The position numbers and the translations under genes are program-made. Below, piece after piece: positions 1,699-45,651 of a stretch of 64,000 nt of DNA. This DNA comes from an uncultured Acidobacteriota bacterium. GTDB taxonomy: Bacteria > Actinomycetota > Acidimicrobiia > Spongiisociales > ZC4RG35. The notes under the pieces were generated by a model. That model searched no databases, was not told the origin of the DNA, and worked only from the letters and a program-made list of their open reading frames with translations. Numbering within the stretch: position 1 is the stretch's first letter; every line of letters begins with the position of its first letter. The stretch spans positions 128,259 through 192,258 of the forward strand of contig CAWENM010000003.1 of NCBI GenBank assembly GCA_963810465.1. The letters run 5' to 3'.

Positions 1699-4131
1699 TT
1701 GACATGGATGTCGTATGACCACCGGGCGATCGAAGCGAAATGGCAGGACCGTTGGGAGTCGGAGGGGGTGTTTCACACCACGGAGGACTCGACCAGGCCC
1801 AAGTTCTACAACGTGGCCATGTACCCCTATCCGTCGGGGGAGCTGCACATCGGCCATGTCCGCAACTACACCTACATCGACCTGATCACCCGATACAAGA
1901 CGATGCAGGGGTTCAACGTGCTCAGCCCCATGGGGTGGGACAGTTTTGGGCTCCCTGCCGAGAACCTGGCGATCGAGACCGGCATCCATCCGAGGGTCAG
2001 CGTCGAGGCCCAGATCACCAGGATGAAAGAGCACTTCCGGAAGCTGGGCGCCGCTTTCGACTGGAGCCGGGAACTGGCGAGCCACGACCCTGCCTACTAC
2101 CGGTGGGACCAGTGGCTCTTCCTCGAGCTCTACGACCGAGGTCTTGCCTACAAGGCGACGGCGCCGGTCAATTGGTGCCCCAAGGACCAGACCGTGCTCG
2201 CCAACGAGCAAGTGGTGGATGGTGCGTGTGAGAGGTGCGGGACGCTGGTCGAGAAGCGAAACCTGGCCCAGTGGTTCTTCAAGATCACCGACTACGCCGA
2301 TCGGCTCCTCGATGACATCGATCATCTCGATGATTGGCCGGATCGGGTCCGAACCATGCAGAGGAATTGGATCGGCCGGTCTGAGGGTGCCCGCTTCACG
2401 ATCCCGGTCGAGGGCACGGACGCCACGTTCGATGTGTTCACGACCAGGCCAGACACCATCTTTGGCATGACATTCTGCGTCCTCGCTCCCGAGCACCAAC
2501 TTGTCGAGGAGTTGATCTCGGGGACCGAAGTCGAGGCTGAGGCCAGGGAGTACATATCTCGAGCGGCCCGCCAGTCGGAGATCGAGCGTCTCGCCGAAGG
2601 CGAGAAGACCGGAGTGTTCACCGGAAGATTCGCCATCAACCCGGTCAACGGGAAGCCGGTACCCATCTACATCGCCGACTATGTGTTGATGGGTTACGGA
2701 ACGGGGGCCATCATGGCTGTCCCGGGTCAGGATCAGCGTGACTGGGACTTCGCGGTCAAGTACGGGCTCGACATCATCCGAACGGTCGAACCCGGAGAGG
2801 GCTGGGATGGCGAGGCCTATCTCGGAGATGGGCTCACCATCAACTCAGGCTTCCTGGATGGTCTCGACCGGGTCGGAGCCAAGGAGCGGATCACCGCATG
2901 GCTCGAGGAGCAGGGGATCGGTGAGGGAACGATCCAGTACCGGCTCCGTGACTGGCTGATCTCGAGACAGCGATACTGGGGTTCCCCGATCCCGATGGTC
3001 GAGTGCCCCGAGTGCGGTTTGGTCCCCGTCCCCCGCGATCAACTACCGGTGACCCTGCCCGAGGTCGAGGACTTCGCTCCCAAGGGCCGATCCCCTCTGG
3101 CGGCTGTCGAAGACTGGGTCGCCACCACCTGTTCCCGATGCGGAGGGCCGGCGAGTCGCGAGACCGACACGATGGACACCTTCGTCGATTCCTCCTGGTA
3201 CTACTTCAGGTACACCGACCCTCACAACGATGAGGCCATATTCGATCGGGCCAAGGCCGAGTATTGGATGCCTCTCGACCAATACATCGGTGGGGTCGAA
3301 CATGCGATCCTCCACCTTCTCTACGCCCGATTCATCACCAAGTTCCTGTACGACATCGGGCTGAGCCCGGTCACTGAGCCCTTCATGAGGATGTTCACCC
3401 AGGGGATGCTGGTGAAGGACGGGGCCAAGATGTCGAAATCGAAGGGCAACGTCGTGCCGCCTGACAGGTACTACCGGGAGTACGGCGCCGACGCCCTGCG
3501 CCTGTTCGAGCTGTTCGTCGGACCACCCACTGACGACGCCGTGTGGAACGACAGCGGTGTTCCCGGGACCAAGCGCTTTCTCGACCGGGTGTGGAAGATG
3601 GGTACCACCGACCACCCATTCGTGGACCGAGGCGCGAACGATGACGATGCCGTATTGATGGCCGAGACGCATCGTGCTTTGAGACGTGTGACCGAGGACA
3701 TCAACCGGTTCCACTTCAACACCACGGTCTCCTCCCTGATGTCCCTGGCGAATGTGTTCCAGGAGTATCTGGGCCGCTCGCCGGTGGAGAAGACCTTCGA
3801 CGAGGCCTATCGGATCATGATCCTGATGTTGGCGCCGGCCGCACCTCATGTCGCACACGAGTTGTGGGAGTTGAGGGGGATGGGTTCGATGCTGGCCGAA
3901 GAACCCTGGCCCCAATGGGACGAGTCCCTGGTAGCTGAGTCGACTGTGACCATGGTGGTCCAGGTCAACGGCAAGGTGCGCGACAGGGTCGAGGTGCCGG
4001 CCGACATCACCGCCGAGGATGCGGAGCGGGTAGCTCTCGGTCTCGACAAGGTTCAGGGCTGGATCGACGGGGCCGTCGTGCACAAAGTCATTGCCCGTCC
4101 TCCCAGCCTCATCAACTTCGTCCTGGGGTGA
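1699..4131 (+). CDS. leuS: leucyl-tRNA synthetase
   Basis: 810 aa. HIGH motif (HIGHVRNY), KMSKS, class I LeuRS editing/anticodon domains. TTG start as in the ORF track. Confidence 0.97.
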   Translation: MTWMSYDHRAIEAKWQDRWESEGVFHTTEDSTRPKFYNVAMYPYPSGELHIGHVRNYTYIDLITRYKTMQGFNVLSPMGWDSFGLPAENLAIETGIHPRVSVEAQITRMKEHFRKLGAAFDWSRELASHDPAYYRWDQWLFLELYDRGLAYKATAPVNWCPKDQTVLANEQVVDGACERCGTLVEKRNLAQWFFKITDYADRLLDDIDHLDDWPDRVRTMQRNWIGRSEGARFTIPVEGTDATFDVFTTRPDTIFGMTFCVLAPEHQLVEELISGTEVEAEAREYISRAARQSEIERLAEGEKTGVFTGRFAINPVNGKPVPIYIADYVLMGYGTGAIMAVPGQDQRDWDFAVKYGLDIIRTVEPGEGWDGEAYLGDGLTINSGFLDGLDRVGAKERITAWLEEQGIGEGTIQYRLRDWLISRQRYWGSPIPMVECPECGLVPVPRDQLPVTLPEVEDFAPKGRSPLAAVEDWVATTCSRCGGPASRETDTMDTFVDSSWYYFRYTDPHNDEAIFDRAKAEYWMPLDQYIGGVEHAILHLLYARFITKFLYDIGLSPVTEPFMRMFTQGMLVKDGAKMSKSKGNVVPPDRYYREYGADALRLFELFVGPPTDDAVWNDSGVPGTKRFLDRVWKMGTTDHPFVDRGANDDDAVLMAETHRALRRVTEDINRFHFNTTVSSLMSLANVFQEYLGRSPVEKTFDEAYRIMILMLAPAAPHVAHELWELRGMGSMLAEEPWPQWDESLVAESTVTMVVQVNGKVRDRVEVPADITAEDAERVALGLDKVQGWIDGAVVHKVIARPPSLINFVLG

Positions 4132-4520
4132 ACGCCGGCCAGATGCTGCGTTCCGGCGGGATCGACTCTCTTCGGGTGCGTTTGCTGATCCATCCCATCG
4201 ACCCCGAATCGGTCCGCGTCAGATCCGCGCCGCGGATAATGCGCCGGCTCTGGGCCCGAGACATCAGCGCGATGACGTTGGGCAACACCATCTTCCTCGA
4301 CCCGGCCGTCCTGGCAGCGGCGCAGCATCGATCCAGTCTGCTCCTCGTCCACGAGCTGGTGCACGTGCGTCAATGGGGTGAGCTGGGCGTCATCCGGTTC
4401 CTCTGGAGGTATCTGACCGGCTATCTCGGCGGGAGGTGGAAAGGCCTCGGCCATCATGCTGCGTATCTGGCCATACCCCTCGAAGTCGAGGCGCGGGTGA
4501 CAGCCCGTCTCCTCGGGTGA
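4128..4520 (+). CDS. DUF4157-like HExxH zinc-metallopeptidase-fold protein
   Basis: 130 aa with HELVHVRQW (HExxH) motif. GTGA overlap with the leuS stop. Confidence 0.6.
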   Translation: MNAGQMLRSGGIDSLRVRLLIHPIDPESVRVRSAPRIMRRLWARDISAMTLGNTIFLDPAVLAAAQHRSSLLLVHELVHVRQWGELGVIRFLWRYLTGYLGGRWKGLGHHAAYLAIPLEVEARVTARLLG

Positions 4521-4529
4521 GGGTCCGCC

Positions 4530-5339
4530 CTATTCGACGACCACGCCGTCCAGATCCGGCTCGGGCGGATAATGCGGATCCATCATCTCGAGTGTTTGGA
4601 TAAGGATGCTGGCCACCACGAGATCGCGGTACCACTTGCGGTCGGCGGGCACCACGTACCAGGGGGCATGCTCTGTCGAAGTTCGGCTGAGAGCCTCTTC
4701 GTAGGCCAGGGCAAAGTCATCCCATAGCTTCCGATCCTCCAGGTCAGCGGTGTTGAACTTCCATCTCTTGTCCGGTTCCTGAAGACGGGCCTCGAGTCGT
4801 TCCTTCTGCTCCTCCTTGGAGATGTAGAGGAAGAGCTTGACCACGGTCGTCCCCTCATCGGTCAGCAGGCGCTCGAAATCGACGATGTGGCCATAACGTT
4901 TTCGCCAGCGCTCTTCAGGAGCGAGATCTTTCACCCGCACCACGAGAACGTCCTCGTAGTGCGAGCGGTTGAAGATGGTGATCCCGCCATTCTCAGGCGT
5001 TCGTTGGTGGATTCGCCAGAGATAGTCGTGGGCTAGTTCCCATTCCGTGGGAACGCCGAACCCCCAGACCCTCACTCCCTGGGGATTGACCCCTTCGAAC
5101 ACGCTCCGGATGGTTCCGTCCTTGCCCCCGGTGTCCATGGCCTGAAGAACGATGAGCAATTTCTGTTTGGACTCGGCCCAGAGACGTGTCTGCAGCTCGG
5201 CGAGAGTCGCGTTCAAAGGCTTCAGCGCCTCCTTGCCCTCGACCTTCCCCCCTTCGAAGCCTTGCTTGGAACGGGTGTCGCGAGCCGCGAGGTTTGCCTC
5301 CGTGCCGGGTTTGACCAAGTAGGGCGCGATGTCGAGCAC
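4530..5339 (-). CDS. polyphosphate kinase 2 (PPK2) family protein
   Basis: PPK2 signature ...LLIVLQAMDTGGKDGTIR... and C-terminal ...PWYVVPADRKWYRDL... The long Arg/Pro-rich N-terminal extension in the track ORF looks spurious. Start is probably GTG near 5339 (uncertain). Confidence 0.8.
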   Translation of the reverse strand: MLDIAPYLVKPGTEANLAARDTRSKQGFEGGKVEGKEALKPLNATLAELQTRLWAESKQKLLIVLQAMDTGGKDGTIRSVFEGVNPQGVRVWGFGVPTEWELAHDYLWRIHQRTPENGGITIFNRSHYEDVLVVRVKDLAPEERWRKRYGHIVDFERLLTDEGTTVVKLFLYISKEEQKERLEARLQEPDKRWKFNTADLEDRKLWDDFALAYEEALSRTSTEHAPWYVVPADRKWYRDLVVASILIQTLEMMDPHYPPEPDLDGVVVE

Positions 5340-36397: not shown

Positions 36398-36586
36398 CTA
36401 TTTCCGGCGTGCCCTGCGCCACAGAACCGCTCCACTGGCCAGAACCGCGACAGCACCGAGCACCACCCACAAAGGGTCGCCGGTCATGAAGCTCTGTGGG
36501 GCGAAGGCGACGTCGAGACCCTGCAGGATCCAGATGACCCCGACGATGCCGAGGATGATCCCCAGCGCCATGCTCAAGTCCCGCAT
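36398..36586 (-). CDS. small membrane protein (two TM helices)
   Basis: ATG MRDLSMALGIILGIVGVIWILQG...VLGAVAVLASGAVLWRRARRK. Shorter than the 87-aa track ORF. Confidence 0.45.
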   Translation of the reverse strand: MRDLSMALGIILGIVGVIWILQGLDVAFAPQSFMTGDPLWVVLGAVAVLASGAVLWRRARRK

Positions 36587-36601
36587 CGCTCGAACATAGC
36601 T

Positions 36602-36631
36602 CTTGACTTCGACCGGTGCTTCAGCTGATAA
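36602..36631 (+). promoter_or_regulatory. promoter for Phe leader peptide: TTGACT-N18-GATAAT, near-leaderless
   Basis: Read from the sequence. The leader ATG lies about 11 nt after the -10. Confidence 0.4.
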
Positions 36632-36641
36632 TCTCGATCCA

Positions 36642-36716
36642 CATGAAGACGAGCCCAACACCGATCACGAGCGCCACGCCTCGGCGCTTCTTCGGGTTCG
36701 TCTATTTCGGCGCCTA
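36642..36716 (+). CDS. Phe-rich leader peptide (pheL-like): MKTSPTPITSATPRRFFGFVYFGA
   Basis: 24 codons, 4 Phe plus Tyr within the last 9 residues. Sits 70 nt upstream of a chorismate mutase/prephenate dehydratase gene. Not in the ORF track (<60 aa). Confidence 0.6.
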
Positions 36717-36779
36717 GCGCCGACTCACCCCACCCCCGCGTTACTCCGTCCCTATCCACTCTTCAACCGCGCCGAGGCG
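36676..36779 (+). promoter_or_regulatory. long-range 11-bp perfect stem (CGCCTCGGCGC 36676-36686 with GCGCCGAGGCG 36769-36779) sequestering the SD (GAGG 36774-36777) of the downstream fusion gene
   Basis: Exact reverse complementarity read from the sequence. The 5' arm lies immediately upstream of the Phe codon run inside the leader ORF. Confidence 0.45.
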
Positions 36780-36786
36780 ACCACCC

Positions 36787-38820
36787 ATGAATGACAAGTC
36801 CGATTCGAATCCAGGTGACATCGAACAGATCCGAGACGATATAGACCGGATCGACGCCGACATCCTCAAACTCCTTGCCGAGCGGAAAGCCCACAGTCTC
36901 CGCATTGCCAAGGAGAAGGGGATCCACGACCGCCCGTCCCGGGACCAGTCGAGAGAAGAGGGCCTCATCTCCGACCGTATTGCGGCCGGGATGGAGCACG
37001 ATCTCGACTCGGGTCTGGTGAACCGGGTGTGGCGGGAGATCGTCAACGACTCGGTGCGGATCCAGCAGGAGTATCTCGGACGTGCCGAGCGACCCCGTCA
37101 GACAATGACGGTGGCCATCCAGGGGATCGAGGGCTCGTACAGCCAGCTCGCATCCCAGCAGTTCTTCGACCACAAGGGGATGTCGGTCAACTACCTGCGC
37201 GCCCCGACCTTCGCCGCGGCCATCGGTGCCGTGCAGAGACTGGATGCCGATGTGGCCGTCCTCCCCATTGAGAACACGACCTCGGGTGCCATCTCGGAGG
37301 TCTACGACCTGTTGTTGGAGAGCAGGCTTCACTTCGTCGGTGACGTTCGTTTTCGGATCCGTCATTGTCTCCTCGGCATCGAGGGCGCCTCGATCTCCGA
37401 GCTACGTCGCATCTACTGCCATCCCCAGGCAGTCGCCCAGTGCACCGAGTTCCTTGCTCAGCTCGACCATTGCGAGATCGTCTACTTCTCTGATACCGCC
37501 CTGTCCGGGCAGAAGATCCGTGAGCTGGGAGACCCGACGATCGCCGCCATCGCCAGCGAGGAGGCGGCGCGTCTATTCGGCCTCGATGTGCTGAAGACGG
37601 GTATCGCCAACAGGGACGAGAACTTCACGCGGTTCGTAGTGGTCGCCGCCGAGCCTGCCGAGGTTCCAGACGGGGTGGCATCGAAGACATCGATCGTGAT
37701 GGCGGTGGGTAACCATCCCGGAGCCCTCATGGACGCTTTGGCCGTGTTCCACGACGCCGACATCAACCTGGTCATGCTCGAGTCCCGGCCTATCCCGAAC
37801 AACCCGCGGGAGGAGCTGTTCTATCTCGACTTCGACGGCAACGTCTCGGAGCCGGCAGTCCAGGCTGTGCTCGAGATACTCATGAGACAGGTCCGGTTTC
37901 TTCGGGTGCTGGGCAGCTATCCATCGAGAGACCTACGCCCCAAGCCGATCGAGCGGAAGATCAAGAAAGTGAAACCTCAAGGCCGTTCCACCCTCACCGA
38001 GTTGGCTCCGACCGCGGCCAGCCCCAAGGGCTACAAGCTGGGCAGCCGCGGTCACAAGGAGCACAACACAATTGTCGAGGTAGCCGGGGTCAGGATCGGG
38101 GGCGACGACCTCGTGGTTATCGCCGGGCCATGCGCCGTCGAGTCCTGGGACCAGGTGATGACTGCGGCCAAGGCGGTGAAGGAGAGTGGTGGGTCCATCC
38201 TCCGTGGGGGCTGTTTCAAGCCCCGGACCTCCCCGTACTCGTTCCAGGGTCTGGCCTACGAGGGTCTCGAGATGCTGGTCGAGGCCGGCAAGGCGTACGG
38301 CCTGCCCGTGGTCACCGAAGTGGTCTCGCCCGAAGACGTCGAAGGTGTGGCCCGCAAGGCCGACATCCTCCAGATCGGCACCAGGAACATGCAGAACTTC
38401 TCCCTGCTCTCAGCGGCGGGTCGGGCGCATCGCCCGGTCATGCTGAAGCGGGGGATGAGCTCGTCTCTCGACGAGCTATTGCAGGCGGCCGAATACATCC
38501 TCTCGGAAGGGAACCAGCAGGTGTTCCTCTGCGAGCGGGGCATCCGGACGTTCGAGACTTCGACTCGCAACACCCTGGACCTGAGCGCCGTGCCTGTGCT
38601 CCGCCAGCGGACCCATCTGCCGATCATCGTCGACCCGTCGCATGCGGCGGGAGATCGTGAGCTGGTTGCGCCGTTGGCGCTGGCCGCTCAGGCGATCGGC
38701 GCCCATGGGATCATGGTGGAGATCCATCCCGATCCGGACAATGCGCTCAGCGACGGTCCACAGTCACTTCGATTGGATCAATTCCAGGACCTGATGCTGG
38801 CCCTTGGCTTCGGGGGCTGA
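36787..38820 (+). CDS. trifunctional fusion: chorismate mutase (AroQ) - prephenate dehydratase - ACT - DAHP synthase (class I-beta / KDO8PS-like)
   Basis: 677 aa. N-terminal CM helix motif ([31 protein letters not shown]). PDT domain with TRF/ESRP motifs and ACT. C-terminal DAHPS I-beta ([37 protein letters not shown]). Confidence 0.9.
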
Positions 38821-38824
38821 GAAC

Positions 38825-39439
38825 TCAGGAGGGAACGTCGACCGTGGTGGGCAACCACGACGGTCGAGCCTCCTCATGGGAGCTGATCAAGTCGTCGTGG
38901 CTCATCGTGACACCGATCCCATCGAGCCCAGTCAGGAGCCGCTCCTTGGCGGTCGGGTCGAAATCGAATTGCTCCTCCAGGCCGTCGGCCGTCACCGTCT
39001 GGCTCTCCAGATCGATGCTCACCTCGGCCGTGGGGTCGGCGGCGAGATCGATGAGGCGGGTGACCGCGTCTTGGGGCAACTCGACGACCAGCAAGCCGAC
39101 ATAGCTCGAGTTGTTGCGGAAGATGTCGGCCGCCGACGCGGTGATGACCGCCTCGAAGCCCCATTGTTGGATTGCCCAGGGGGCGTGCTCGCGTGAGGAC
39201 CCGCATCCGAAGTTCGGTCCGGTGACCAGCACCCGGGCTGCCCGACGGGCGGGATCGTTGATGATGAAGTCGGAGCTCGGTGTGCCGTCGTCGGTGTGTG
39301 CCCAGTTGTAGAAGAGGAACTCCCCGTAGCCATCCCGCTCGATCCGCTTGAGGAACTGCTGGGGGATGATCTGATCGGTGTCCACGTCGCCGCGGTCGAG
39401 GGGCATCATCGTCCCGGTGATCGTTGTGACGGGCTTCAC
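38825..39439 (-). CDS. leuD: 3-isopropylmalate dehydratase small subunit
   Basis: 205 aa from GTG (GTGA overlap with the leuC stop). LeuD/aconitase swivel domain. The track ORF 38825..39616 is over-extended. Confidence 0.9.
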
Positions 39440-40842
39440 GAGCCCTCCCACTCCCTGACATCGACGAAGTGGCCCGCTACTGCGGCCGCGGCAGCCATGG
39501 CTGGACTGACGAGATGGGTCCGGGCCCCACGCCCCTGACGCCCTTCGTAGTTCCGATTCGAGGTCGACGCACATCGCTCCCCGGCGGGGATCACATCGGG
39601 GTTCATCGCCAGACAACTCGAGCAGCCGGCGTCTCTCCAGGAGAACCCGGCTGCCTCGAAGACCTCATGGAGACCCTCGGACTCGGCTTGGGCCTTGACC
39701 TGCATCGATCCCGGAACGACCACGGCGCTCACCCTCGAGTCGACTCTGCGGCCCTCGACGACCTTGGCGGCGGCGCGGAGGTCCTCGATCCTCCCGTTCG
39801 TGCAAGAGCCGAGGAACACGTGGTCGACCGCGATGTCGAGGATGGGTGTCCCCGGTCTCAGGGCCATGTACTCGAGGGCCCGCACGGCGGCATCCCGTTG
39901 CAAAGGGTCGTCATAGGAGTCAGGTGAGGGAACCGAACCGGTGACAGGCACAGTTTGAGCCGGGTTGACGCCCCAGCTGACGTGGGGGACAAGACGGGAC
40001 GCATCGAGGACCGCGACCTTGTCGAACACCGCATCGGGATCGGTGACCAGGCCCTCCCAGGTCGACACCGCCTCGTCCCAGCGGGCGCCCTTCGGCGCGA
40101 AGGGACGACCCTCGATGTACCGGATCGTGGTCTCGTCGGGGGCGATCATCCCGGCCCTGGCGCCTCCCTCGATCGACATGTTGCAGATGGTCATCCTCTG
40201 CTCCATGGAGAGGTCGTGTATCGCCTGGCCCCGATACTCGATGACATGCCGGGTCCCGCCGGACACACCGATCTGGGCAATGATCCCCAGGATCAAGTCC
40301 TTGGCGGCGACTCCCCAGGGCAGCTCTCCCTCCACCTCGACCGCCATCGACTGCGGCTTCGCCTGCCAGATGGTTTGAGTGGCGAGGACGTGCTCGACCT
40401 CGGTGGTGCCGATCCCGAAGGCGAGAGCGCCGAACGCGCCGTGCGTCGAAGTGTGGCTGTCACCACACACGACGAGCAACCCCGGTTGGGTGAGTCCCTG
40501 CTCCGGCCCGACAACGTGGACGATGCCCTGACGCGGGTCATCGAGGCCGAACATGGTGATGTCGTGGTCCTTGCAGTTCTGGACGAGAGCATCGATCTGC
40601 TTCTTGGAGAGAGGGTCACGAATACCGAGTGAGCGACCGGTGGTGGGAATTCCATGGTCGACCGTTGCAATGGTGAGATCGGGCCGCCTCACCGATCGGC
40701 CAGATTGATTCAGACCGGCGAAGGCCTGTGGCGAGGTGACTTCGTGGACGAGGTGCAGGTCGACGTAGAGCAGCGTCGGATCGGCATCGATCACGATGTG
40801 GTTGTCCCAAACCTTCTGAAAGAGCGTGCGCGGGGCGGTCAT
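39436..40842 (-). CDS. leuC: 3-isopropylmalate dehydratase large subunit
   Basis: 468 aa, aconitase family with Fe-S ligand cysteines (CGDSHT, GSCTNGR, CSSCL). Confidence 0.95.
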
Positions 40843-41918
40843 GCCGTGGCCCCGGCCTTCTCGGGCTCGGCGACGAGCGAGGCCACCCGGTCACCGACCT
40901 CGGTGGTGCTGATTCCCATCTCACCGGCACGCAGGGAGGGAAGCGAACCGGCGACCTCACCGACGGCGTTCTCGACGGCGTCGGCCGCCCCGACCTCGCC
41001 GAGGACACGAAGCATCATCCCGGCTGCGCCAATGGCGGCGAGGGGGTTGATGAGACCGGTTCCCTCGAACCCGGGGGCGGTGCCTCCGATTGGCTCGAAC
41101 ATGGAGACACCGTTGGGGTTGATGTTCGCCCCGGACGCGATGCCTAGTCCGCCCTGGATGGCGGCTGCGAGGTCAGTGATGATGTCGCCGAACATGTTGT
41201 CGGTCACGATGACGTCGAACCGGCCGGGATCCTCGACCATCCACAGACAGGTCGCATCGACATGGGCATAGGACGTCTCGACGTGTGGATATTCGGCGCC
41301 CACCTCCTGGAACACCCTCGACCACAGATCCCACGCATAGGTGAGCACATTGGTCTTGCCGCACATGGTGAGGTGTCTCCTGGGCCGGGTCGAAGCCAGA
41401 TCGAATGCGTACCGGATGCAACGCTCCACGGCGAAGCGGCTGTTGACCGACTGCTGGACAGCCACCTCGAACGGTGAGCCCTTGGCCGTGAACTCACCCT
41501 GGCCGGCATAGAGGCCCTCGCTGTTCTCCCTGACCACGACGAAGTCGACGTCCTCCGGGCGAACGTCGCGTAGCGGTCCATTGACGCCGGGATGGAGCTT
41601 GACGGGGCGCAGATTTATGAACTGGTCGAGCTCGCGGCGCATCCTCAGCAGAATGTCCTGCTCGAGAACACCTGGCGGCACGCCGGGATGTCCCACGGCA
41701 CCGAAGAGAATGGCGTCGGCGCTGCCCAATGCCTGAAGGTCGGCCCCCGTCAGCGTTTCGCTCGTGCGCAGATAACGCTCACCACCCAGGTCGAGCTCGT
41801 CGTATTCGATCTCGAAGCCGTGGACCTCCGCGGCCACGCCGAGGACCTTCACCGCCTCAGCTACTACCTCCGGTCCGGTCCCATCACCGGGAACTTTCGC
41901 TATGGAGTAGCTGCTCAT
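40839..41918 (-). CDS. leuB: 3-isopropylmalate dehydrogenase
   Basis: 359 aa isocitrate/isopropylmalate DH family, in leuA-leuB-leuCD context. Confidence 0.88.
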
Positions 41919-43111
41919 TCGAACGAGGCCGTGACCCCGTCGAGTACCTCGATCCCGGAGCTGACCTCCTCGACGATGGCCCGGATCTGATCCGGGGTCA
42001 CTTCGCCGGAACGGTCGGCAACCTCCTTCATCCGGGCGAAGGACGCCTCGAAGACGACGTCGCTCACCTCGATGCCGAGCTCGCCCAATGAATGCTTGAA
42101 GGCAGCACGTCCCGAGTGCTTCCCGATCACAATCACCGAGTTGCCCATCCCGACTGCCATCGGGTCCATTATCTCGTATGTGGTGCGCTCCCGGAGCACG
42201 CCGTGCTGGTGGATCCCCGACTCGTGGGCGAACGCATTGCGCCCGACCACGGCCTTGTTGAACTGGACGGGGTAACCGGTCTGTTCCGACACCAGTCTCG
42301 AGGTCTCGTAGATCTCCTCAGTGGTGACTCCGACGCCGACGCCGTATGCGTCGGCACGTACGCGCAACGCCATGACCACCTCCTCGATAGAGGTGTTGCC
42401 GGCGCGTTCGCCGATCCCGTTGATGGCCCCCTCCACCTGGCGAGCCCCGGCCTCGACTGCGGCGAGCGAGTTGGCAACAGCCAGGCCGAGATCGTTGTGA
42501 CAATGCGTGGAGACCACCACGTCGTCGCGGTCTCCCTTCACCTCGTCCACGACGCGTTTGATCAAGATCCCGTAGTCGCCTGGAGTGGCATATCCCACAG
42601 TGTCGGGGATGTTCACGGTGGTGGCGCCCGCCTCGACGGCCGCCTGGCAAACCGCCACCACGAAATCTGGATCGGAGCGGGTGGCATCCTCTGGCGAGTA
42701 CTCGACGTTCTCCGTGTAGTCGCGGGCTCGGCCCACATTGGCCTTGACGGTCGTGATCACCTCTTCCTCGTTCATGCGGAGCTTGTGCTGCATGTGGATG
42801 GCTGATGTGGCCAGGAACACGTGAATCCGGGGATCGGCGGCATGACGGATCGCCTCCCATGCGCGGTCCACGTCTTCGGCCTGGGCACGGGCCAGGGCCG
42901 CAATCGTCGGGCCCTGCACCTCCTGGGCGATGCGCGTCACCGCCCGGAAGTCCCCTGGCGAGGAGATCGGGAAACCGGCTTCGATGATGTCGACCCCCAG
43001 GCGAGCCAGTTGTGTGGCGATCGCCACCTTCTGGTCGGGGTCGAGGGCGATGCCGGGGGCCTGTTCGCCGTCTCTGAGTGTGCTGTCGAAAATCCTTACT
43101 CGGTCTTCCAT
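41915..43111 (-). CDS. short-form 2-isopropylmalate synthase / citramalate-homocitrate synthase family (DRE-TIM catalytic domain, no C-terminal LeuA regulatory domain)
   Basis: 398 aa, HMGL-like barrel (STLRDGEQ, HCHNDLG). Ends shortly after subdomain II. Operon position is that of leuA. Confidence 0.8.
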   Translation of the reverse strand: MEDRVRIFDSTLRDGEQAPGIALDPDQKVAIATQLARLGVDIIEAGFPISSPGDFRAVTRIAQEVQGPTIAALARAQAEDVDRAWEAIRHAADPRIHVFLATSAIHMQHKLRMNEEEVITTVKANVGRARDYTENVEYSPEDATRSDPDFVVAVCQAAVEAGATTVNIPDTVGYATPGDYGILIKRVVDEVKGDRDDVVVSTHCHNDLGLAVANSLAAVEAGARQVEGAINGIGERAGNTSIEEVVMALRVRADAYGVGVGVTTEEIYETSRLVSEQTGYPVQFNKAVVGRNAFAHESGIHQHGVLRERTTYEIMDPMAVGMGNSVIVIGKHSGRAAFKHSLGELGIEVSDVVFEASFARMKEVADRSGEVTPDQIRAIVEEVSSGIEVLDGVTASFE

Positions 43112-43171
43112 GGTCTCTCCTGAATCTCGTGGTCTCGTCTAGGCGCCGGTCTGCCCGTTGGGGCGTTCCGG

Positions 43172-43240
43172 CTAGATAAGAGCGAGGCCGAGAAGGCTCA
43201 GGAGGGTCAGGTGACGAAGGAAGGAGGCGGCGCGAGTCAT
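43172..43240 (-). CDS. Leu-rich leader peptide MTRAASFLRHLTLLSLLGLALI (8 Leu of 22 aa), start codon overlapping the ilvN stop (ATGA)
   Basis: My own translation of the minus strand between ilvN and the leuA-like gene. Not in the ORF track (<60 aa). Confidence 0.6.
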   Translation of the reverse strand: MTRAASFLRHLTLLSLLGLALI

Positions 43241-43746
43241 TTCCCGACTCCTGCCGTCACAGGGGCGGGACTCAACTCTGACTCCCGCTTCATGGCGATA
43301 CGACCCGACTTGACCAGGTCGATCACGCCATAGGGCCCCAGGTGCTCGAGGAACGTCCTCAGGTGCTGGGGGGTCCCGGCAACCTCGAAGGTCATTGCAG
43401 AAGAGCTGATGTCGATGACCCTGGCGTCGAAGAGTGAGGCGGTGTCTCGAACCTCGCCTCTCGTTGCCGGCTGGGCGCTGATCCGGATGATCATCACCTC
43501 CCGCTCCAATGCCTCGGCCGGCTCCATTTCCTGGACCTTGATCACATTGACCAGCTTGTTGAGCTGTTTCTTCAGCTGCTCTAGCTCCGGAGCATCGACG
43601 ACGAGCGTGATCCGGGATCGCCCGTCCTGATGAGTGGGGCCCACGGCCAGGGAGTGGATGTTGAAGCCCCGGTTGGAGAACATGGCCGAAATCCGGGCCA
43701 GGACGCCGGGCTTGTCCTCGACGAGCACGGTGAGGGTGTGCTGCAT
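43237..43746 (-). CDS. ilvN: acetolactate synthase small (regulatory) subunit
   Basis: ACT domain (LTVLVEDKPGVLARISAMFSNRGFNI) plus ALS_ss_C. Start ATG overlapping the ilvB stop. The track start is over-extended. Confidence 0.92.
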   Translation of the reverse strand: MQHTLTVLVEDKPGVLARISAMFSNRGFNIHSLAVGPTHQDGRSRITLVVDAPELEQLKKQLNKLVNVIKVQEMEPAEALEREVMIIRISAQPATRGEVRDTASLFDARVIDISSSAMTFEVAGTPQHLRTFLEHLGPYGVIDLVKSGRIAMKRESELSPAPVTAGVGK

Positions 43747-45482
43747 CAGAGCTCCTCGCGTCGCATCACGACACGGTCGTTCGAGCCGCCGGCGGGAACC
43801 ATCGGGAAGCACATCTCCTCGCCATCGACCACGACTTCGAGGACGACCGGTCGATCGTTGACGGAGAGGACCTTTTCGATGGCGTTGTCGATCTCAGCAG
43901 GGTGATCCACCCTCAGACCCACGCAACCCATCGCCTCGGCCAGCTTCGGATAGTCGGGATAGGTGAACCCGAGGTCCACCGCGGACAGACGACCTCCGTA
44001 GAACAGGTTCTGCCATTGCTTGACCATCCCGTAGCCGCCGTTGTTGAACACGATGATCTTGACCGGGATCTCCTCGGTGGTGGCGGTGATCAGTTCCTGG
44101 CATGTCATTTGGAAGCACCCATCGCCGTCCAGGGCGATGACCAAGTCGTCGGGTCTGGCCGCCTTGGCCCCGACCGCGGCGGGAACGGCGAATCCCATCG
44201 TCCCCAGACCGCCGGAGTTCACCCAGGATCGCGGCTTCTGGAATCCCCAGAACTGTGATGCCCACATCTGGTGTTGACCGACCCCGGCGGCGACCACGGC
44301 CTCTCCGCCGGTGATGGCGTAGAGCCGCTCGATGAAGTGTTGGACCTTGATCGGGCCATCAGGATCCTGTTCATAGGCGAGGGGGTACTGCTCCTTCCAA
44401 CGGCCGAGCTGGGCGAACCAGTCCTCGCGGGCCGGGGCGTCGGCGGCGTCGCGCCGGGCGCTCAGGCCGGCGAGCAGATCGACAAGCACCGAACGTGCGT
44501 CACCGACGATGGGGACGTCGGCGGCCCGCACTTTTCCAATCTCGGCGGGGTCGACGTCGACGTGGATGATCTTGGCGTGGGGGGCGAAAGCGTTCGGGTC
44601 GCCGGTGACCCGATCATCGAATCGTGCTCCGAGGCTGACCAAGACGTCGGATTTCTGGATGGCGGTGGTGGCGGTGTACAGCCCGTGCATCCCGGGCATA
44701 CCCAGTGCGAGGGGATGGTCGTCCGGGATTGCACCCCTGGCCATCAGAGTCGTGACGACGGGGGCATTGACGGCTTCGGCGAAGGCCAGCAACTCGGGCG
44801 CCGCCCCGGCCTTGATCACCCCGCCGCCCACGTAGAGCACAGGGCGCTCGGCCTGCTCGATCATGTCGAGGGCGGCCCGGATCTGCATCGGGTGCCCCGA
44901 GACGGTGGGCTTGTAGCCGGGGAGGTTGTGCAGATGTGGTTCCCGCCAGGTGGTGACCTGGTTGAGTACGTCCTTGGGGATGTCGACGAGGACCGGACCT
45001 GGCCTTCCGGTGGAGGCGAGGTGGAATGCCTCGTGAATCAGGTTCGGGATGTCGTCGGCGTCGGTAACCATGTACGAGTGCTTCGTGCAATGCATGGCGA
45101 GACCGGTCGTGTACGCCTCCTGGAAGGCGTCACTCCCGATCGCTGATGTGGGGACCTGCCCGGTGATGGCGACGATCGGCGTCGAATCCATCAGGGCGTT
45201 CTGCAGTGGAGTGATCAGATTGGTCGCTCCGGGCCCGGAGGTAGCCATCACCACGCCCACCAGTCCAGTGGCCTGGGCAAAGCCCTCGGCCATGTGCCCG
45301 GCGCCCTGCTCGTGCCGGGCCAGCACATGCCTTATTGGACTGTCAAGGAGGGGGTCGTAGGCGGGGAGAATGGCACCTCCGGGCACGCCGAAAATGATCT
45401 CGACACCTTCATGCTCGAGGCTACGAAGGAGCGAGTGTGATCCGGTGAAGTTGGTTGGTTCTGTCATGGTGTCGGGAAACAA
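43746..45482 (-). CDS. ilvB: acetolactate synthase large (catalytic) subunit
   Basis: 578 aa ThDP-dependent (TPP_enzyme N/M/C). Start is either TTG at 45482 (SD GGAGGG 5 nt upstream, within the terminator arm) or ATG at 45467. Confidence 0.95.
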   Translation of the reverse strand: MFPDTMTEPTNFTGSHSLLRSLEHEGVEIIFGVPGGAILPAYDPLLDSPIRHVLARHEQGAGHMAEGFAQATGLVGVVMATSGPGATNLITPLQNALMDSTPIVAITGQVPTSAIGSDAFQEAYTTGLAMHCTKHSYMVTDADDIPNLIHEAFHLASTGRPGPVLVDIPKDVLNQVTTWREPHLHNLPGYKPTVSGHPMQIRAALDMIEQAERPVLYVGGGVIKAGAAPELLAFAEAVNAPVVTTLMARGAIPDDHPLALGMPGMHGLYTATTAIQKSDVLVSLGARFDDRVTGDPNAFAPHAKIIHVDVDPAEIGKVRAADVPIVGDARSVLVDLLAGLSARRDAADAPAREDWFAQLGRWKEQYPLAYEQDPDGPIKVQHFIERLYAITGGEAVVAAGVGQHQMWASQFWGFQKPRSWVNSGGLGTMGFAVPAAVGAKAARPDDLVIALDGDGCFQMTCQELITATTEEIPVKIIVFNNGGYGMVKQWQNLFYGGRLSAVDLGFTYPDYPKLAEAMGCVGLRVDHPAEIDNAIEKVLSVNDRPVVLEVVVDGEEMCFPMVPAGGSNDRVVMRREEL

Positions 45483-45505
45483 AAAACCCTCCGGGGTGGA
45501 GGGTC
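45481..45505 (-). terminator. intrinsic terminator (attenuator) immediately upstream of ilvB: CCCTCCACCCCGGAGGG + UUUUUUGUUU
   Basis: 7-bp G/C stem followed by a U-run on the minus-strand transcript, located between the leader peptide stop and the ilvB start. Confidence 0.65.
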
Positions 45506-45532
45506 GAGCGCACGCAGGTCTGTTTGCGCGCG

Positions 45533-45613
45533 CTACACGATAAGAAGGAGTACGTCGGCGGCGGCGAACAACTGTCTCACGTGTTTCTCAGTAAACAACT
45601 TGCCCGTACTCAT
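45533..45613 (-). CDS. branched-chain amino acid leader peptide MSTGKLFTEKHVRQLFAAADVLLLIV
   Basis: 26 aa ending VLLLIV-stop, 28 nt upstream of the terminator hairpin. Visible as the C-terminus of track ORF 45533..46159(-). Confidence 0.55.
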   Translation of the reverse strand: MSTGKLFTEKHVRQLFAAADVLLLIV

Positions 45614-45651
45614 GTCAAGAACATCGGGCGATGTCGGCGTTTCCTGAACCG

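Follow-up and report, generated by a model that had tools for sequence, protein, structure and literature searches.

A predicted single-chain chorismate mutase-prephenate dehydratase-DAHP synthase preceded by a candidate phenylalanine leader in Acidimicrobiia

[quoted passage not shown] According to a 2021 account, the decorations of these enzymes are discrete allosteric modules, the only fused enzyme being an N- or C-terminal chorismate mutase (CM), and N-terminal modules gate the active site, as in the tyrosine-latched ferredoxin-like (FL) gate of TmaDAH7PS and the prephenate-closed CM gate of GspDAH7PS (PMC8408635). In the P-protein PheA, the CM and prephenate dehydratase (PDT) activities are inhibited by phenylalanine (PMC10520331). 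A link between the two kinds of enzyme was noted in 2005 by Song, Bonner, Wolinsky and Jensen, who described a "bizarre" aroA-I-beta pseudogene fused to aroQ-pheA in Shewanella (BMC Biol 3:13; PMC1173090). This remark is the only published mention that we found, and no description of an intact CM-PDT-ACT-DAHPS protein was returned by full-text literature searches, for which most subscription-journal papers were outside reach. Here we analyze such a fusion gene, located at positions 36787-38820 (plus strand) of a stretch of 64,000 nucleotides (hereafter the window; contig CAWENM010000003.1 of assembly GCA_963810465.1, positions 128,259 to 192,258) from an uncultured bacterium named as Acidobacteriota and placed by GTDB in the Acidimicrobiia.

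The gene starts with ATG and runs over 677 codons with zero internal stops, as checked on the open reading frame (ORF) and its translation. Its product is laid out as CM, PDT, ACT, linker and type I-beta DAHPS. An AroQ CM domain (36829-37068, residues 15-94; Pfam CM_2, 57 bits) is followed by a PDT catalytic domain (37111-37653, residues 109-289; Pfam PDT, 181 bits), an ACT regulatory domain (37681-37923, residues 299-379), a K/R/P-rich linker predicted to be disordered (37939-38025, residues 385-413) and the barrel (38026-38799, residues 414-671), whose N-terminal hairpin segment carries the motif PKGYKLGSR and of which Pfam DAHP_synth_1 covers residues 430-668 with 267 bits. The ACT domain was delimited from the Pfam match, the AlphaFold2 fold and alignments to PDT structures; the Pfam ACT match at residues 303-361 reaches 22.5 bits and lies under the 27-bit cut-off. 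Searches against solved structures agree with this layout: residues 13-97 align to the Escherichia coli CM (1ecm), residues 108-378 to the Phe-bound, Phe-inhibited PDT of Chlorobium (2qmx), the PDT region also to 7alz and 6vh5, and residues 411-671 to the Aeropyrum pernix DAHPS (1vs1, 329 bits).

The preliminary description of this DNA had proposed the four domains and assigned the C-terminal part to class I-beta from the letters alone, and both proposals are borne out by the Pfam and NCBIfam scans. The DAHPS-specific models exceed their curated cut-offs (PRK08673, 428 against 335 bits; TIGR01361, 385 against 268 bits), whereas an assignment to KDO8PS fails (PRK05198, 122 bits against a cut-off of 242). 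The protein also passes PRK12595, the equivalog of bifunctional DAHPS/CM (390 against 279 bits, in two stretches), and fails PRK10622, the equivalog of bifunctional CM/PDT (313 against 577 bits), even though the latter alignment spans residues 12-384 from end to end. Compared with the E. coli-type P-protein, the window protein shares the CM and PDT catalytic residues, the GAL(V/M) and ESRP motifs and a leader with Phe codons like that of pheL-pheA, but it stays under the PRK10622 cut-off, has an extra DAHPS module of 290 residues and is preceded by a leader without a canonical terminator.

The residues expected of active enzymes are in place. In the alignment the CM domain retains R16, R33, K44, R56, E57 and Q93, the equivalents of EcCM R11, R28, K39, R51, E52 and Q88, a full catalytic set. 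The PDT domain has its TRF motif at T281-R282-F283, and the ACT domain, which was also aligned to the Phe-bound PDTs 2qmx and 6vh5, has GALM at 312-315 and ESRP at 332-335, the Phe-site motifs of PheA. All eight positions checked in the barrel are present (C449, H619, E645, D656, the motif K478-P-R-T-S482, and K554). By correspondence with the T. maritima enzyme, the first four are metal ligands and KPRTS is the motif that binds phosphoenolpyruvate. The metal ligands, KPRTS and K554 are invariant in the alignment of intact fusions, and the signature residues of CM, PDT, ACT and DAHPS are kept in every close relative and in the intact fusions of other phyla. The DAHPS is the most conserved domain of intact fusions (64-70% identity across phyla, against 33-40% for the CM), whereas identity in the linker is 4-42%, against 64-85% for the DAHPS. 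The barrel of the window protein is predicted from these residues to be catalytically intact, and the gene very probably encodes a real trifunctional single-chain architecture.

The preliminary description had also allowed that a mis-assembly or a missed stop at the junction might have joined two genes. In favour of such an accident, or of a sequencing error or frameshift, adjacent but separate pheA and aroA genes do occur in other lineages. This possibility was rejected on the evidence of independent assemblies and cluster counts, and we give it practically no weight. Metagenomes of different samples, assembled independently, contain the same uninterrupted ORF (L086-L104): tblastn recovered residues 1-677 there as one segment, at 85-99% identity. 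The identical Pfam set is shown by at least 120 protein clusters at 90% identity, 674-703 residues long. The named relatives are metagenome-assembled genomes (MAGs) of Acidimicrobiia, which makes this the likely lineage of the window, and contigs of 1.36 and 2.64 Mb carry the fusion among same-architecture clusters. The linker is in frame and conserved among close relatives, and the architecture as such recurs in over 240 clusters at 90% identity.

When 1.84 billion representatives at 50% identity were searched exhaustively with phmmer, 23,671 matches resulted, the best 150 of which were classed by domain-segment BLAST. CM-PDT-ACT-DAHPS accounts for 55 of these 150, and about 16 more are of equal length with a CM too diverged for BLASTP detection. 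DAHPS alone makes up 52; the reverse order DAHPS-PDT-ACT was found in seven, CM-DAHPS in four, DAHPS-CM in two and PDT-ACT-DAHPS-CM in one, the remaining 13 being P-proteins without DAHPS, partial proteins or other arrangements. In addition, GTDB species genomes were scanned, and loci among the 600 stretches listed were checked ORF by ORF, which yields a taxon list that is a sample and not a census. Among the matches listed, intact single-ORF forward fusions are present in Acidimicrobiia, Melioribacter and Ignavibacteriaceae, Holophagales and Krumholzibacteriia, as well as in one MAG of Actinomycetes and one unclassified MAG. The forward architecture is also seen at L005, from Acidobacteriota, but this locus is interrupted by the contig end. 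The Ignavibacteriota contribute at least 120 further 90% clusters, including the cultured Stygiobacter electus, and an essentially intact fusion occurs in the alphaproteobacterium Iodidimonas gelatinilytica. The earlier suggestion that the architecture is uncommon therefore holds for the literature, with its one remark of 2005, but not for the databases, where phmmer and BLAST find hundreds of clusters in several phyla and the fusion is frequent among uncultured bacteria. The cultured carriers S. electus and I. gelatinilytica make direct tests of the intact form feasible.

The fusions P0438 (Iodidimonas), P0432, P0436, P0440 and P0122, a group that includes a Rhodothalassiaceae MAG and related proteins, keep the DAHPS site, some with S482N. 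The CM residue Arg56 (equivalent to EcCM Arg51) is replaced by Val or Gln in this group, a change that may have impaired the CM domain or turned it to another use.

Public names of these proteins (P0019, P0022, P0293, P0389 and others) each omit an activity. NCBI uses "bifunctional DAHPS/chorismate mutase", a name explained by the fusion passing PRK12595, JGI uses "chorismate mutase/prephenate dehydratase", and "3-deoxy-7-phosphoheptulonate synthase" is also found. As a consequence, metabolic reconstructions of Acidimicrobiia and Ignavibacteriota may miss PDT or DAHPS. As judged by sequence, the protein is of a known kind, at once a decorated type I-beta DAHPS and an aromatic-pathway fusion enzyme, and what is new is the intact and under-annotated fusion of a P-protein to DAHPS. 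Such a fusion would also offer a ready-made single-gene module for the engineering of the phenylalanine pathway.

An AlphaFold2 monomer model, built from 135 homologues, gives a confident fold for each of the four domains (mean predicted local distance difference test score, pLDDT, 84.5). The ACT domain at 299-379 forms a beta-alpha-beta-beta-alpha-beta unit with a pLDDT of about 85-92, and the barrel superposes in Foldseek on the active A. pernix enzyme with a template modelling (TM) score of 0.92, a root-mean-square deviation (rmsd) of 2.0 A and 61% identity. Only residues 1-8 and 385-399 fall below a pLDDT of 50; values are 45-55 over 381-410 and stay low as far as about 420, in agreement with a linker of about 28 residues whose length and sequence differ between lineages. 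The conserved PKGYKLGSR starts right after it, at residue 414, which aligns to T. maritima residue 67, just past the FL regulatory domain of that enzyme, and Foldseek aligns the whole T. maritima chain, FL domain included, collinearly with ACT, linker and barrel over 384-387 columns. Since the P-protein is tethered to the N-terminus of the barrel, the ACT domain takes the place in sequence of the T. maritima-type ferredoxin-like domain, as had been supposed when the ACT was first placed at the regulatory-module position of I-beta enzymes.

The likeness to the T. maritima DAH7PS (1rzm, 3pg9) and to the engineered FL-PfuDAH7PS (4grs) lies in a bab-bab domain tethered N-terminally to an I-beta barrel. 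Identity to the T. maritima enzyme is about 40% over the Foldseek alignment with the regulatory domain and 50-51% to the barrel-only 3pg8. The window protein differs in that its N-terminal module is the ACT of a complete PDT and not PF18152 (DAHP_snth_FXD), for which the Pfam scan gave no match in this protein, in a linker about 25 residues longer and in two further enzyme domains that precede. Without being filed as a member, the window protein may work like this gated family. The enzymes AroA(G) of Bacillus, Listeria and Geobacillus (3nvt, 5j6f) likewise place an AroQ CM N-terminally of an I-beta barrel, and the window protein passes PRK12595, the DAHPS domains clustering together in a neighbour-joining (NJ) tree; it differs by some 320 residues between CM and barrel, by a CM with the full catalytic set and by a dedicated PDT after it.

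Upstream of the gene lies a second candidate layer of control. A sigma-70-type promoter (36603-36632, plus strand; -35 TTGACT at 36603-36608, an 18-nt spacer, -10 GATAAT at 36627-36632) has a 10/12 match and is the sole match to the motif in 2.6 kb; leader-bearing loci have TTGACA and a GATAAT-like -10 at conserved spacing. The -10 box ends 10 nt before the ATG of a leader-peptide ORF, which is thus leaderless or nearly so. This ORF (36643-36717, plus strand; MKTSPTPITSATPRRFFGFVYFGA) has 24 codons and a stop and ends in RRFFGFVYFGA, with the regulatory block FFGFVYF (four Phe codons and one Tyr codon) at 36688-36708. Of the 55 metagenome loci whose fusion reaches 57% identity or more, 53 have an ORF at the same position, and so does each of the eight genome or contig loci of Acidimicrobiia (L001, L002, L014 and L081-L085), so the Phe leader of the preliminary description is confirmed as a conserved feature; no such ORF was found at fusion loci of other phyla. 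The N-terminus of the peptide is hypervariable, and its aromatic C-terminus ending in FGA before the stop is conserved.

The leader stop lies in a hairpin, UCGGCGC-CUA-GCGCCGA (36707-36723, plus strand), which is GC-rich, of 7 bp, invariant and unique in the window: the UAG (36715-36717) occupies the loop and the 3' arm, and the last sense codons form the 5' arm. L002 has a compensatory CGGCU/AGCCG version. A C-rich spacer follows (36718-36786, plus strand; 53% C and 16% G), predicted to be unstructured and rut-like, containing the conserved block CACCCCACCCCCGC at 36726-36739 and ending in a GAGG Shine-Dalgarno-like motif ahead of the fusion ATG. The spacers of related loci have 36-54% C and 12-20% G, the C/G ratio being 1.9-4.1 in 31 of 31 leaders, in comparison with a G + C content of 63.5% for the window overall. 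In folds of individual sequences, leader codons 2-5 pair with the aromatic codons in a long-range stem, with sequences that differ by clade and alignment indels that obscure covariation; the stem is suggestive only. In the window, leader codons 12-15 are complementary to the Shine-Dalgarno region over 11 nt, a match that is confined to the closest relatives.

Precedents for Phe-responsive leaders are the aroR of Corynebacterium glutamicum, located before the DAHPS gene aroF, and pheL-pheA (PMC11802643). Like aroR, which also belongs to an Actinomycetota member, and like E. coli pheL, the window has a short upstream ORF with clustered Phe/Tyr codons; it differs in being nearly leaderless, in its stop-codon hairpin and C-rich spacer and in the missing U-tract terminator, with no sequence similarity to either and no Rfam family. 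A Phe-responsive leader is the likely interpretation. Ribosomes stalling on the FFGFVYF codons would additionally tune expression of the fusion, probably not through an intrinsic terminator; an output that is Rho-dependent or kinetic, through the stop-codon hairpin and the C-rich spacer, is a guess that we hold weakly.

Taken as a whole, the locus is best explained, in our moderately confident view, by a single-chain trifunctional enzyme in which the ACT domain would gate the DAHPS and by a Phe leader in front of it. In such an enzyme the DAHPS barrels would form the usual tetramer core, with the PDT-ACT and CM dimers sitting on its faces, and Phe bound at the ACT interface would reposition the bulky N-terminal module over the DAHPS active site, much as Tyr latches the gate of TmaDAH7PS and prephenate closes the CM gate of GspDAH7PS. 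The gating of DAHPS by Phe through the ACT domain, drawn by analogy with these enzymes and from the Phe inhibition of P-protein CM and PDT, is put forward tentatively, as a serious candidate that falls a little short of an even chance. If true, an entire Phe-regulated P-protein serving as N-terminal decoration would be a further way to couple pathway entry to one end product, and the Phe latch would be a natural counterpart of engineered ACT-DAH7PS chimeras.

A number of observations speak against this account. The rmsd to T. maritima with the regulatory domain is 14-19 A, so that fold and order match and the orientation does not emerge, and the predicted TM score (pTM) of the monomer is 0.50, with no confident inter-domain geometry. 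Fusions of the reverse order retain their own FXD domain and carry PDT-ACT at the C-terminus, which implies that an N-terminal ACT is not needed for the advantage of the fusion. The crude NJ tree places the DAHPS domain with the CM-DAHPS enzymes of Bacillus type, which have prephenate or chorismate as effector. In a cell with the fusion as its sole DAHPS, the synthesis of Tyr and Trp would be starved by inhibition through Phe only; no second copy of CM, PDT, ACT or DAHPS occurs in the 64-kb window, to which the search was confined. As regards the leader, the terminator scan found no U-tract intrinsic terminator after it, Rfam gave zero matches in it even at E <= 1, and the only structure returned by RNAalifold was a 5-bp core of the stop-codon hairpin, invariant and showing no covariation. 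A model of Shine-Dalgarno masking was tried and rejected: with the footprint of a stalled ribosome set on the first aromatic codon, on the last one or on the stop, the predicted accessibility of the fusion's ribosome-binding region did not change (test means 0.50, 0.52, 0.46 and 0.49 over 27 sequences).

Another reading is a sequential feedback of Bacillus type, in which DAHPS would respond to prephenate or chorismate in the active site of the CM (or PDT) rather than to Phe at the ACT domain, with Phe acting indirectly by shutting PDT so that prephenate accumulates. This would spare Tyr and Trp synthesis when only Phe is high, the mechanism is documented for GspDAH7PS (PMC8408635), the PRK12595 equivalog is passed, and the fusion DAHPS domains are intermingled with CM-DAHPS. 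Intermediates with a truncated PDT also exist. The tree nevertheless has no support values, and the roughly 320 residues of PDT, ACT and linker that separate CM from barrel count against it; on balance we regard such a feedback as unlikely.

Among the truncated forms, P0148 and P0155 consist of CM, the first ~76 residues of PDT, ACT and DAHPS, and P0135 and P0178 of CM, ~90 residues and DAHPS. In the NJ tree they lie between the trifunctional fusion and the Bacillus-type CM-DAHPS and cluster with them. That they form a reductive series is speculative.

It may also be that the fusion serves only co-expression, stoichiometry and proximity, with Phe regulating PDT, CM and the leader, and the barrel uncoupled from the ACT domain. 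A long disordered linker, variable in length and sequence, would suit such an arrangement, as would the existence of both domain orders, which a simple fusion of operon neighbours would yield, and the finding that pheA and aroA(I-beta) are often mere neighbours (L011, L013, L026, L031, L039, L041, L042 and L056). What counts against it is that I-beta DAHPS without decoration are unregulated and that the added domain serves allostery in every decorated enzyme characterised (PMC8408635); moreover, Proteobacteria keep a catalytically dead barrel under constraint (see below), which implies that it interacts with the P-protein part in a structural or regulatory way that does not involve catalysis. 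We consider an uncoupled barrel possible but rather improbable.

The separate genes just mentioned, together with L067 and L036, are adjacent on the same strand, the partner of aroA(I-beta) being pheA or another gene; L056 belongs to Haloimpatiens. Among the matches listed, adjacent unfused genes were found in Clostridia, Deltaproteobacteria, Anaerolineae and others, and an adjacent pheA>aroA pair is a plausible precursor state of the fusions.

The reverse fusion, FXD-DAHPS-PDT-ACT of ~620-650 residues, was identified in L017 (Ruminococcus intestinalis, 2806-4728), L022, L032, L050 and L069, where the order was settled by Pfam and segment BLAST and PF18152 FXD was matched, and in the proteins P0141, P0143, P0144, P0154, P0170 and P0208, spirochaetes being included among the carriers. 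Its barrels group with free-standing FL-type DAHPS in the NJ tree, and the reverse-order fusion is independent of the forward one. PDT/ACT and DAHPS were joined at least twice independently and are often encoded by adjacent genes, which argues for a recurrent functional link between them.

A further alternative, raised by distant relatives, is that the barrel of the window protein is a non-catalytic pseudoenzyme or scaffold, as in the Shewanella/Agarivorans type, and that the protein is a bifunctional P-protein only. Of 68 distant fusion representatives (50% identity), 21 keep all eight DAHPS catalytic positions and 47, about two thirds, have lost some or all of them; 45 of these 47 keep three positions or fewer, although nearly all retain the CM, PDT and ACT signatures, and the Shewanella case was itself termed a pseudogene domain (PMC1173090). 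For the window protein such a loss is highly improbable, given its eight conserved positions, the DAHPS cut-offs exceeded, the rank of DAHPS as its most conserved domain and the close match to the active A. pernix enzyme.

Named degenerate fusions, with 0-5 of the eight DAHPS positions, come from Agarivorans (P0134), Ferrimonas balearica (P0425), Marinobacter (P0421) and Paraferrimonas (P0156), and Aliagarivorans, Alginatibacterium, Corallincola and Celerinatantimonas have close relatives of the degenerate forms, by sequence match only; the degenerate form, as far as sequences tell, is widespread in Proteobacteria. The dead barrel shows 37-83% identity in degenerate fusions, against 11-52% for the linker, and still reaches 171-190 bits on DAHP_synth_1. 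Being conserved and still scoring, it is a pseudo-domain that has been kept, not DNA in decay. Apart from itself, the Agarivorans protein has its best matches, among those listed, in intact fusions over the full length, at 45-49% identity. The crude NJ tree unites the barrels of intact fusions, degenerate fusions and CM-DAHPS in a single clade, to which most free-standing FL-type enzymes do not belong. This tree fits one origin of the forward fusion followed by decay.

The dead-DAHPS fusions are probably the "bizarre" aroA(I-beta) pseudogene domain reported from Shewanella in 2005. The AroQ-PheA-aroA(I-beta) of Shewanella oneidensis has the same CM-PDT-ACT-DAHPS-like order, as judged from the description in that paper and from related Alteromonadales proteins, and the relatives in Agarivorans, Ferrimonas, Paraferrimonas, Marinobacter and Corallincola show a full-length, collinear match to the window protein. 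No Shewanella sequences were among the matches listed. The relatives of Shewanella type have lost DAHPS catalytic residues, whereas the window protein keeps all of them. The intact fusion is a likely origin of a dead DAHPS domain on the Shewanella PheA that has been unexplained since 2005, and the intact, degenerate, truncated and reverse-order forms together provide material on how fused enzymes turn into regulatory pseudo-domains.

Combining the preferred gating reading with these relatives, a life cycle can be imagined in which adjacent pheA>aroA genes would first have given rise to the intact trifunctional fusion. On one branch, that of Shewanella, Agarivorans and Ferrimonas, DAHPS catalysis would then have been lost, and PheA would have kept the dead barrel as a scaffold or a regulatory domain; on another, PDT would have eroded towards a Bacillus-type CM-DAHPS. 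In Acidimicrobiia the fusion would have come under a non-canonical, leaderless and possibly Rho-dependent leader-peptide attenuator responding to Phe. That the ACT domain acts as a Phe latch on DAHPS, so that one Phe site would throttle entry into the pathway together with its branch point and the step committed to Phe, and that the life cycle and the leader reading hold along with it, is a combination that we offer as a conjecture, possible and yet doubtful as a whole.

The fusion gene is convergent with an ilvB-ilvN-leuA-leuB-leuC-leuD cluster (38825-45482, minus strand). The convergent leuD-leuC-leuB-leuA-like order is kept in L081-L084 (78-87% identity) and partly rearranged in L085 (72%). 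Upstream of ilvB, whose ATG lies near 45467, a branched-chain attenuator was identified (45477-45625, minus strand), with a TTGACA -35-like box, a leader ORF MRQLFAAADVLLLIV running from GTG at 45580 to TAG at 45533 (minus strand) and a GC-rich terminator hairpin GACCCTCC-ACCCC-GGAGGGTT (45505-45485, minus strand) followed by the T-run TTTTTTGTTT. This attenuator shows that the genome uses canonical U-tract terminators in leader-peptide control, unlike what is seen at the Phe leader. On the other side of the fusion, a small divergent ORF (36398-36661, minus strand) encodes a predicted two-helix membrane protein and tightly abuts or overlaps the leader promoter, and a small minus-strand gene encoding 54-72 residues is called at the equivalent position in L081-L084.

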